From positions 10,411 through 74,410 of the IMG/VR virus record IMGVR_UViG_3300020470_000460: a stretch of DNA of 64,000 nt; one strand, given 5' to 3'. The DNA is from a virus. The notes beneath the pieces are model-generated. The model was not told the DNA's origin and ran no database searches. It was given only the letters and a program-made list of their open reading frames with translations. The position numbers and the translations under genes are program-made. The first letter of the stretch is position 1. Every line of letters starts with the position of its first letter. Below, in pieces: positions 32 through 20,311 of this stretch.

Positions 32-146
32 TGTTAATTAGTCCCCACACAGTTGTTGTTAATTAGTGGGTATACGGTTTGTGTTAATTAGTGGGGGTAA
101 TATGCACCCCCTTATGTGTTAACAACTGTGTGTGCCTATGTGTTAA
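32..146. repeat. Phased direct repeats TGTTAATTAGT plus a 12-bp inverted repeat
   Basis: TGTTAATTAGT at 32, 57 and 82 (25-bp period); TATGTGTTAA at 113 and 137; CACACAGTTGTT (46-57) is the reverse complement of 121-132. Confidence 0.85.
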
Positions 147-527
147 GAATCGCTGCTAAATTGCGTTGCGTCGAGTAATGCTAACTTCTCGCTTTTAAAC
201 GGTCCATTCTTATTACATCCATCGTAATTATACGCCCAAAAGTATTTCCTACGTGTTTCCCAGATCTTTACATCTACTGGGGGAATTGTCTGAATGGTTG
301 TTACTTTGGTCATGGCAATTAGGGGCAAGTTTGTGTTAGGCAGTAGGGGGCAAATCGTTGCGGGATTGTTTATACTTTTCCACATAGTCTGTGGAATTGT
401 TATCACTTTCCCTGCGATACTTTGTCTTGGATTGTTTACGCTTTTCTCTCAAACTTTTCGCCCTATGTGATGAATAGGGGTCATTACGTTTGTATGTCCT
501 TCCCATTGGTAATTTGCTTACAATGTA

Positions 528-556
528 ATAATAACCGAGATCGATTGCGTTGTCAA
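528..556 (-). promoter_or_regulatory. sigma70-type promoter
   Basis: TTGACA-17-TATTAT on the minus strand. Confidence 0.55.
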
Positions 557-592
557 GGGTTATAACGAGATTGTGGCAATTCTTAGCAATTG

Positions 593-621
593 TTGACAAA
601 AATCCGTCGATAGATTACGCT
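593..621 (+). promoter_or_regulatory. sigma70-type promoter, antisense to local genes
   Basis: TTGACA-17-TACGCT on the plus strand. Confidence 0.45.
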
Positions 622-802
622 CTAAGACAACACTTTGTTACGCTATTTATGGGGGTTTAAATAACACTCTACTACATTTATTTAACCATTTAAAATATAC
701 ACTACTTTTCCACAATCTCTCCGCAAAGTGTGGAAAACTGTTGAAAATCTGTGGATTCATTGTTATCAATTAGTAGTGATGATTAGGTCGTAATTGTTGT
801 TA

Positions 803-1165
803 TTATCTTAGGTATAAGTATCCTCCTGCCCAATCACATTTAGTAAAGCAAGTTTGCGGATCAGTTAATAAATTGTATCGTGCAATATCTGCTGGTTTGT
901 TCCAACTTGCTGGTTTATATACATGCCCTAATAGTTTATCTACGAAGCAATGTACAGAATTGTCAGTAATAACTTTCCAATACTTTCTTCCTAGTTTAAT
1001 TTCAACATTGTAGGGCAAATCGTGTCCTGCTCGTTGATAAGAATTGAGGATGTAATCTTTGAGTTTGTTTACATTTTTCTCTATCACTTTTGCGTCATAA
1101 GCAAAATCTTTGCGAAAGTGATGTTCTTTAACAGCAGAGATCAAATCTTGTCTAGGTTGTGTCAT
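803..1165 (-). CDS. Conserved phage hypothetical early protein
   Basis: 120-aa ORF with GRKYWKV...VHCFVD...YKPASW...YL motifs typical of a phage family. Confidence 0.75.
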   Translation of the reverse strand: MTQPRQDLISAVKEHHFRKDFAYDAKVIEKNVNKLKDYILNSYQRAGHDLPYNVEIKLGRKYWKVITDNSVHCFVDKLLGHVYKPASWNKPADIARYNLLTDPQTCFTKCDWAGGYLYLR

Positions 1166-18864: not shown

Positions 18865-20311
18865 ATAGATTCTCCTTATAGTAATCGTATGGGCACTGTA
18901 ATTTATCTATACCCTTCCAAGGATCAGGTACATGCTCTGGTACCGTGCCACCTGCATAGTAGTCAAGTTCTTTATAAACTAGATCACTAAATGGATTCCA
19001 TCCTTGACCTGCTTGGACATAGAATGATCCTTCACTTGATAGATCACCCCAGTTATATGCGTCACCAAATGTTGAAGATGGTAATCCTAGATTCCTCTGG
19101 AATCTAAAGAAGCAATGATCATCAGGATAATGCTTATCACATATATGCTGCCAATATGGTGTGTCATTACGTTGAGTATATGCAAAGTGTGATGCTACAA
19201 ACATAGCAAACTCATCGAAACTACCATTACAATTATTATTAAATGTATCTCTCATTAGTTGTGTAACAGTATCTCTACCATCCATCACACGTAAGAACAT
19301 CAATAAGAAATTATGTATGGATAGTATACCATTAGATTCTAATGGTTCAAGGAAACCAGCAGACAATCCAATTGATATTACATTACCATTCCACATCTCC
19401 TTTCTTCTACCTGTTGTCCATTTAATAACACGGAACATCTTGTCAGTATATGCTCCTACATCTGACTCTATATTATCTGCAAGATAATCTCTAAACTCAT
19501 CTATTGCTTCTTGATCTGAGCAGAACTTATCACAATATACATATCCACTACCTATTCTAGTCCACGTGGGTACATTCCAACACCAACCATTATCAAGAGC
19601 AACACAATCTGTGACTGGTTTCATTTGCTCTTCTTTATTATTATAGGCAAACCTGGTCACAACTGCACTATTATTTGGCAGTATGTCACTCATATCCACC
19701 CAAGGTGAATCATTTAATAGTGATTTGAATCCTGTGCAATCAAAATATAGATCTGCTTTAGGTAATCTCTTAGGGTTTATCTTCCTCTTAACATGTCTAA
19801 CACCACGAGGTAGTGCAAAATTATCTCTTAACCACTCACCAAACTTAACTGCATCAAAATGGAATCCAGTATATTTGTGTAGATCCCAGTAATCATTTGT
19901 TAATGGTAGTTTATTCTGTGTTACACATGCTGCTGCATAACTATAGTCTTCAGCAAACTTAGAATTATTCCATCCATACTTCTTCTGATAATACCACCAC
20001 TGTGCAGGTTCAAATAAATCACCCCTTGGCGGACCAAATGGGTACTGCCAAGGGGTATCCCCTTTCTTATGAAAATTATGAAATCTTACACTTGCTTTAT
20101 ATGTTGCATCACATGCCTCCATCCAATCCTCATCCTTCAGATCAAGGAAGTGACACCATAGTCTAAAAAATTGTGTGGTTGACTCACCTACACCAACAGA
20201 GGGAGTCTTAGCATCTTCGTACAAAACAATATCCCAATCGGGATATGCTTTGACCAGCGTAGATGCAGTCATCCAACCAGCGGTACCACCGCCAACAATA
20301 ACAATTTTCAT
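18854..20311 (-). CDS. prnA: Flavin-dependent (tryptophan) halogenase-like
   Basis: GGGTAG, GVGEST, ATYK, GWCWNVP, FLEPLESNG. Confidence 0.9.
   Translation of the reverse strand: MKIVIVGGGTAGWMTASTLVKAYPDWDIVLYEDAKTPSVGVGESTTQFFRLWCHFLDLKDEDWMEACDATYKASVRFHNFHKKGDTPWQYPFGPPRGDLFEPAQWWYYQKKYGWNNSKFAEDYSYAAACVTQNKLPLTNDYWDLHKYTGFHFDAVKFGEWLRDNFALPRGVRHVKRKINPKRLPKADLYFDCTGFKSLLNDSPWVDMSDILPNNSAVVTRFAYNNKEEQMKPVTDCVALDNGWCWNVPTWTRIGSGYVYCDKFCSDQEAIDEFRDYLADNIESDVGAYTDKMFRVIKWTTGRRKEMWNGNVISIGLSAGFLEPLESNGILSIHNFLLMFLRVMDGRDTVTQLMRDTFNNNCNGSFDEFAMFVASHFAYTQRNDTPYWQHICDKHYPDDHCFFRFQRNLGLPSSTFGDAYNWGDLSSEGSFYVQAGQGWNPFSDLVYKELDYYAGGTVPEHVPDPWKGIDKLQCPYDYYKENLYAS

Follow-up and report, generated by a model that had tools for sequence, protein, structure and literature searches.

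Origins of coliphage T4 such as oriF (uvsY) and oriG (gene 34) combine a promoter with a downstream unwinding element and use an R-loop as primer; they rely on MotA-dependent middle promoters and do not use DnaA. To our knowledge, cyanomyoviruses are reported to lack MotA and AsiA, and we know of no mapped replication origin in T4-like cyanophages. T4-like cyanophages are among the most abundant viruses of the ocean. The origins of P1 (oriR), pSC101, F and RK2 are DnaA-assisted, with boxes beside an AT-rich region, and depend on an element-encoded Rep and its iterons.

The general DnaA-box consensus is TTWTNCACA, in which positions 3 and 5 are free (PMC5835720). The 9-mer TTTTCCACA is the "species-specific" cyanobacterial DnaA box, to which DnaA binding was shown in vitro (PMC4674748), and the sequence-only reading of the present DNA, which had given it that identity, agrees with this source. 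In E. coli, datA, DARS1 and DARS2 are non-origin clusters of few DnaA boxes in which arrangement matters, and datA needs an IHF site (PMC5835720). The sole statement on cyanophage origins found in the literature was the prediction of a single theta origin for Syn9 (PMC2984593), and full-text searches yielded no publication that connects DnaA boxes with cyanophages.

Composition of the box cluster and its surroundings

The 64-kb stretch of DNA analysed (64,000 nucleotides; the window) was the larger part of a single viral contig of 74,410 bp, with nearly all ORFs on the minus strand. Neighbourhood genes were those expected of a T4-like cyanomyovirus (Kyanoviridae gp96 family, DUF7717, a DEAD/ResIII helicase, and dam-like methylases with their nearest counterparts in Prochlorococcus phage P-SSM7), with protein identities to cultured phages of only about 35-50%. 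Near-identical DNA occurred in marine and seawater metagenomes from 11 studies. No dnaA gene was found on the contig, which was only about 40% complete, and no Rep gene was seen; no tRNAs were found, and the sole Rfam match was a chance miRNA at 47-141. A 489-bp gap separating two small minus-strand genes (143-313 and 803-1165) contained the boxes. Judged by sequence comparison, positions 336-760 are very probably this clade's version of a conserved cyanomyovirus cis-module organised around predicted host DnaA sites. The features of the gap and its flanks, in the direction of the genes, were:

803-1165, minus strand: flanking gene, DUF7717 / phrog_818 (T4-like gene cluster 68)
761-774, minus strand: private repeat ACTAATTRAYAACA, one copy just upstream of the box array
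750-758, minus strand: weak box-like site GAATCCACA, three mismatches, TCCACA core kept, 11 bp beyond the 739 site
739-747, minus strand: one-mismatch box TTTTCAACA, 10 bp from the 729 box
729-737, minus strand: perfect DnaA box TTTTCCACA, left arm of a convergent pair in gene orientation
717-725, plus strand: degenerate box-like 9-mer CTCTCCGCA within the pair spacer, 6/9 match
706-714, plus strand: perfect DnaA box, right arm of the convergent pair, 14-bp spacer
655-705, no strand: AT-rich tract of low stability directly beside the box pair, candidate unwinding element
588-634, plus strand: near-invariant block with a plus promoter-like element pointing into the AT tract
528-556, minus strand: sigma70-type early promoter TTGACA-17-TATTAT of the small ORF, 11/12 match
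388-396, minus strand: box AATTCCACA with two mismatches, part of a 7-bp inverted repeat together with the 376 box
376-384, plus strand: perfect DnaA box within the small ORF (codons ..T GTG GAA AA.)
336-506, minus strand: conserved ORF for a very basic protein of 56 aa (P0001)
143-313, minus strand: flanking gene, phrog_24597, 56 aa

Perfect copies of TTTTCCACA occurred in the window only at 376, 706 and 729 (the last reversed), exactly where the sequence-only reading had placed them and all within a 362-bp span. The chance expectation was 0.98 per window (shuffles) and 1.02 per contig (first-order Markov model); the full 74.4-kb contig had one further perfect copy, 1.16 kb upstream of the window and, by eye, apparently in coding DNA. 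Three boxes within 400 bp were obtained in 0 of 400 Markov-simulated contigs (analytic expectation 1.5e-5), and the 9-mer was thus both enriched and clustered relative to expectation. The near matches described earlier at 739 and 750 were also present, with one and three mismatches, and the starts 729, 739 and 750 were spaced 10 and 11 bp apart, in keeping with the helical phasing that had been claimed.

The tract at 655-705 was AT-rich as described (78% A+T vs. 61% for the window) and held a 45-mer among the 0.07% least stable of the contig. The equivalent 45-mer ranked in the top 0.17% in the complete relative G001, in the top 0.5% in S-RIM8 and in only the top 10% in P-SSM7. Conservation extended to the sequence of the tract itself (e.g., GTGTATATTTTAAATGG). 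The proximal box faced the tract with its TTTT end; E. coli R1 presumably faces its unwinding element the opposite way.

Both promoters of the earlier description were located. The minus sigma70 promoter at 528-556 matched the consensus at 11 of 12 positions and was conserved in all relatives, where it read CCTTGACA-17-TATAAT and was followed by the conserved ORF; it is predicted from sequence to drive the 56-aa ORF. The plus promoter at 593-621 was borne out in part: its -35 was perfect (TTGACA, 593-598), it was aimed into the AT tract and its block was conserved, but after a 17-nt spacer its -10 (TACGCT, 616-621) matched at only 3 of 6 positions. It fell below the threshold of the promoter scan and was hence unlisted by that tool. 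The surrounding block (588-634) was almost invariant in 22 unique relatives, and related motifs (TCTTAGCACG ... GTCAAC) were present in the Syn9/S-RIM8/P-SSM7 family; the -35 of the plus promoter was not retained in Syn9.

Bacterial clusters at dnaA promoters and oriC were like the present locus in the 9-mer, the convergent pair at 14-15 bp, the third site in the spacer, the 10-11 bp phasing and the AT-rich tract beside the boxes. Unlike them, the present locus belonged to a lytic T4-like phage with its own replisome and no dnaA gene found on its contig, had no DnaA-trios (runs of three or more TAR trinucleotides or of NAN repeats were found on neither strand of the present DNA or of G001) and had one box embedded in a protein-coding gene. 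No GATC enrichment was found. With T4 oriF and oriG the locus shared the phage lineage, the replisome type and a promoter-like element directed into an AT-rich tract without a sense gene; it differed from them in its weak -10 and in the host DnaA boxes abutting the tract. The resemblance to datA and the DARS loci lay in the few clustered boxes, one of them opposed, and the order of box, degenerate box and opposed box may be DARS-like, with a middle site matching at only 6-7 of 9 positions. In contrast to datA, no IHF site was present (WATCARNNNNTTR on neither strand of 313-802), and the promoter and AT-tract context was foreign to both datA and DARS.

P1 oriR, pSC101, F and RK2 resembled the locus in having boxes beside an AT-rich region, and this phage had private 14-bp repeats nearby; it differed from them in that no Rep gene was seen and the repeats were not conserved in relatives. 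The 14-bp repeat ACTAATTRAYAACA occurred in 8 copies, all on the minus (gene) strand and all between window positions -62 and 2606 (29-92, 761-774, 1181-1194, 1732-1745, 2606-2619, and 62 bp upstream of the window). Three copies were in tandem at 25-bp spacing, and some lay 0-45 nt 5' of start codons. The repeat may serve as a motif of early promoters or operators, or the copies may be iterons. It was absent from the complete relative G001 and therefore lies outside the conserved core of the module; iterons as a core part of the module were rejected, the ACTAATTAACAACA repeats being private to this phage.

Conservation of the module and of the small ORF in uncultured relatives

Used as query against IMG/VR, the flanking DUF7717 protein recovered 28 loci, and in the 16 closest, at flanking-protein identities down to 49%, the boxes recurred in the same places. 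Scanning for the 28-mer of the gap with the highest conservation retrieved 27 contigs of related uncultured cyanomyoviruses. All complete copies on these contigs had boxes at fixed offsets from the near-invariant block, with direct boxes at -130 and/or -119, one opposed box at -95 and another at +235, and the alignment showed a constant order of box array, AT-rich tract, near-invariant block (588-634), consensus promoter and ORF. Three of the four perfect boxes lay inside the module in G001 (199 kb, 100% complete), as did three of three in G004 and three of four in G003. This clade's element had no BLAST match among isolate phages.

The 376 slot was perfect in all 23 unique relatives, the 729 slot in 18 of 23 (variants TTTTACACA, TTATACACA and TTTTCAACA) and the 706 slot in 15 of 23, with TTATCCACA, the E. 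coli-type high-affinity box, in 5 and other variants in 3. Relatives with an imperfect box at -119 (the 729 slot) always had a perfect box 11 bp upstream, and the slot equivalent to 739 held a perfect box in 8 of 23. The 750 site was weakly conserved; in one relative (L008), TTATCCACA preceded the main box by about 21 bp. The site at 388-396 was retained in most relatives and lost in three (L011, L014 and L015), with the 376 box still perfect there. Within the pair spacer, GCGGA was retained in the relatives and in the Syn9/S-RIM8 family.

Substitutions in the three constant slots numbered 14 across the 23 unique relatives, and 10 of them affected positions 3 and 5; counted as independent events, about 7 of 10 fell at these free positions of TTWTNCACA. 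No substitution in an arm of the convergent pair was compensated in the other arm. Substitution mainly at free positions and never in compensation indicates protein sites rather than a hairpin. The conservation in related phages on which the origin proposal depended was accordingly found, with boxes at fixed positions across divergent relatives and variation mainly where the consensus is free.

The same substitutions bear on an RNA-level element, either a terminator or hairpin or a structured non-coding RNA, which is scarcely credible as the function of the module. The stretch 378-396 was flagged as terminator-like by a scan tool, the 9-bp arms at 706-737 could pair, and the module lay directly 3' of the stop codon of a gene. 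Against these, arm substitutions were never compensatory, RNAalifold gave no conserved fold on either strand (-7 and -4 kcal/mol), the 706-737 hairpin had no U-tail and Rfam had no match for the module. Conserved RNA structure or a terminator was thus largely refuted by the lack of covariation and the weak energies.

The region was not wholly non-coding, a point missing from the sequence-only reading: the 376 box sat inside the ORF at 336-506. This ORF was intact in 23 of 23 relatives (50-64 aa), and its codon-position entropies (19.9 / 14.9 / 28.7) followed a coding-type substitution pattern. The encoded family was lysine/arginine-rich (MGR[ST]YKRNDPYSS...VEKY). Its 47 homologous clusters came exclusively from marine metagenomes, none of them was annotated, and neither Pfam nor PHROG gave a match. 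None of the nine bases of the 376 box varied, three third-codon positions among them, and codon 41 kept its third base even as the amino acid varied among Y, S, P, N and T; the invariance of these third-codon bases suggests a constraint on the DNA beyond coding need.

RNA-library contigs from two studies covered the ORF. Coverage by such contigs, which cannot show strand, starts or absence, extended over 235-506, with none over 522-789. One RNA-library contig (run X17) joined 396 to 480, omitting 83 bases inside the small ORF; it probably came from a divergent relative rather than from processing.

Sister modules in cultured cyanophages and the same pair in bacteria

A scan of IMG/VR for TTTTCCACA-N8-24-TGTGGAAAA returned at least 120 contigs. 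Among the matches listed, the spacer was far from uniform in distribution, at 14 nt in 54 of 123 instances and 15 nt in 25 of 123. Prochlorococcus phage P-SSM7 was among the convergent-pair matches, and its pair with about 140 nt of downstream non-coding DNA was detectable by BLAST in 196 isolate (cultured-cyanophage) records, including S-RIM8, S-IOM18, S-RIM12, S-M1 and ACG-2014a. In P-SSM7, S-RIM8 and Syn9 the box pair itself was observed.

The sister module was positioned as here, at the end of a small-gene cluster and with the baseplate-wedge gene about 1.3 kb downstream, and continued into a CCTTGACA-17-TATAAT promoter. Motifs common to both forms (TTAAAT..., GTGTT..TTAT, AAATG, TCTTAGNNCG and GTCAAC) occurred in the same order, so the two forms look homologous. 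The gene under the promoter was the small basic ORF in this clade and a gp88-like gene in Syn9, S-RIM8 and P-SSM7, where boxes were present and the small protein gene was absent. Such a difference in the downstream gene between families suggests that the DNA functions in cis and does not serve to control one particular gene.

P-SSM7, S-RIM8 and three complete IMG/VR records had 5-7 perfect boxes each, vs. 0-1 for the reversed control, and 4 of these boxes lay within 2 kb or less. S-RIM8 had a box in the leader right after TATAAT, and P-SSM7 had two boxes directly upstream of a start codon. Further phages were chosen without regard to boxes and then checked for clusters: Syn9 had an N15 pair and one further box, S-PM2 three boxes in 34 bp and S-SM2 two in 30 bp; no clustered boxes were found in P-HM2, P-SSM2, S-SSM7, S-SKS1, coliphage T4 or pelagiphage HTVC008M. 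The S-RIM8-type cassette was undetectable in P-HM2, S-SSM7, P-SSM2, S-SKS1 and S-SM2. Boxes and cassette go together in the lineages without clustered boxes.

The possibility that boxes are an optional add-on to the cassette was rejected, five cyanophages without clustered boxes being also without a detectable S-RIM8-type cassette. In S-PM2 (NC_006820), one forward and two reverse boxes at 19231-19264 lay about 1.8 kb downstream of a DUF7717 homologue, an arrangement different from that of the present module at a similar genomic position. In P-SSM7, the annotated 39-aa ORF PSSM7_078 (L175:2745-2864) lay wholly inside the conserved non-coding cassette after the pair, and the corresponding stretch was unannotated in S-RIM8; PSSM7_078 is probably not a real gene.

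In bacteria, the convergent N14-15 pair was found in many phyla (120 loci listed, no cyanobacterium among them). In five bacterial genomes checked, the pair was unique genome-wide, and in four of the five it was within 10 kb of dnaA. Among the bacterial loci listed, a dnaA homologue was in the same locus (8 kb or less) for 51 of 120, and in 39 of 52 cases the pair preceded the dnaA start, mostly at a distance of 15-400 bp; the bacterial spacer often held a third box. Occurrence beside dnaA across phyla marks the pair as a generic DnaA-binding unit. The bacterial counterpart is mostly a dnaA-promoter feature, and regulatory as much as origin context. A pair 15-400 bp upstream of dnaA recurred in Acidobacteriota, Clostridia, Bacteroidota, Saccharibacteria and others (L187-L306).

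That bacterial context, a classic autoregulated promoter with the pair mostly just upstream of dnaA, raises the alternative of a DnaA-responsive transcription switch, in which host DnaA bound at the pair and at the ORF-internal box would repress or tune early promoters, perhaps through looping or roadblock action, and would tie early phage expression to host DnaA-ATP or replication state. The distance from the pair down to the minus promoter was about 165-200 bp, and a box was about 140 bp downstream of the promoter's start. Boxes flanked a consensus early promoter at a spacing fixed at 330-332 bp, the ORF-internal box was conserved beyond coding needs, and the leader box of S-RIM8 and the two boxes 5' of the P-SSM7 start codon would also fit a switch. 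This function is nevertheless rather unlikely: the pair was far from the -35 for direct control, an operator needs no conserved tract of extreme meltability, and the gene under the promoter differed between families.

Manipulation of host DnaA is a second alternative that the box numbers bring in, and is quite improbable. The 3-7 boxes per genome, as high-affinity sites, would titrate DnaA in the manner of datA or alter its nucleotide state in the manner of DARS or DDAH, and host replication initiation would be shut down or redirected as phage genomes multiply. Several perfect boxes per genome, vs. 0-1 for the control pattern, would fit this, as would the dense box arrays on other viral contigs (e.g., L109 and L075), and three sites with one opposed recall DARS cores (PMC5835720). 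A sink, however, requires no fixed geometry, conserved AT tract or promoter block; only 3-4 boxes were clustered, and 313-802 had no datA-type IHF site. Cyanomyoviruses degrade host DNA, which makes the benefit smaller. Some of the extra boxes lay in 5' leaders or coding DNA, and for these regulation or titration also fits.

Dense arrays of 4-8 or more TTTTCCACA boxes were observed on the IMG/VR contigs L109, L060/L077, L075, L085, L147 and L174, some of them GC-rich and clearly not cyanophage. Borrowing of host DnaA boxes looks widespread among uncultured phages.

It is very improbable that the 9-mers are sites for a phage protein, possibly the small basic protein, or for another host protein, with their DnaA-box identity coincidental. 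A conserved basic 56-aa protein was encoded inside the module, which would fit such a reading. It is opposed by the exact match to the 9-mer of the host, by substitutions that followed DnaA-box degeneracy, by the same arrangement adjoining dnaA in many bacterial phyla and by the sister module of Syn9, S-RIM8 and P-SSM7, which had boxes without the small protein gene.

Candidate role in replication and its significance

Action of the module as a DnaA-assisted replication origin is a plausible reading of the arrangement, held at somewhat less than even likelihood. In gene orientation, two to four direct boxes on the same face end in the pair TTTTCCACA-N14-TGTGGAAAA, followed by the AT tract, the block with the promoter-like element aimed back at the tract, the early promoter and the small ORF with its box. 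Host DnaA would occupy the boxes soon after infection and open the AT tract, perhaps aided by transcription from the plus-strand promoter into the tract. Cyanomyoviruses encode a gp59-type helicase loader, and a T4-type loader and helicase (gp59/gp41) could then enter the opened tract. The origin would be of theta type and DnaA-assisted, and in use until recombination-dependent replication takes over.

The sequence-only reading had proposed a hybrid origin recruiting host DnaA, or else a datA-like sink. The boxes, the meltable tract and the outward-facing promoter-like block stood in favour of the hybrid origin, but the -10 was weak, DnaA-trios were lacking and distribution was patchy. Absence of the module from P-HM2, P-SSM2, S-SSM7 and S-SKS1 means that it cannot be the only replication start of the family. 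A start of the first replication round at a hybrid origin needing host DnaA in many T4-like cyanophages is possible and, on present evidence, doubtful.

The GC-skew inflection looked for at the proposed origin was present neither in the contig nor in G001, P-SSM7, S-RIM8 or Syn9; this result was uninformative, GC skew keeping one sign because nearly all genes are co-oriented on one strand. In P-SSM7 (50-90 kb), S-RIM8 (50-90 kb) and Syn9 (60-100 kb), AT skew switched sign across the block of structural genes that closely follows the module, and GC skew was without sign change over the same blocks. The change in AT skew is probably an effect of codon or amino-acid composition.

As a conserved predicted DnaA-binding module, the element offers a concrete testable locus in the culturable phages Syn9, S-RIM8, P-SSM7 and S-PM2. 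If it is a regulator or sink instead of an origin, it would still give this family a phage-host interface of a new kind. Should DnaA be used, a lytic phage that has its full T4-type replisome would still depend on, or listen to, the host initiator, which could couple phage replication to host physiology and provide a handle for studies of host range and resistance. If the hybrid origin is true, the T4 lineage would have its first DnaA-dependent origin; host DnaA-ATP, and hence light and the state of the cell cycle, would gate phage DNA synthesis, and the light dependence of cyanophage replication would gain a mechanistic link.
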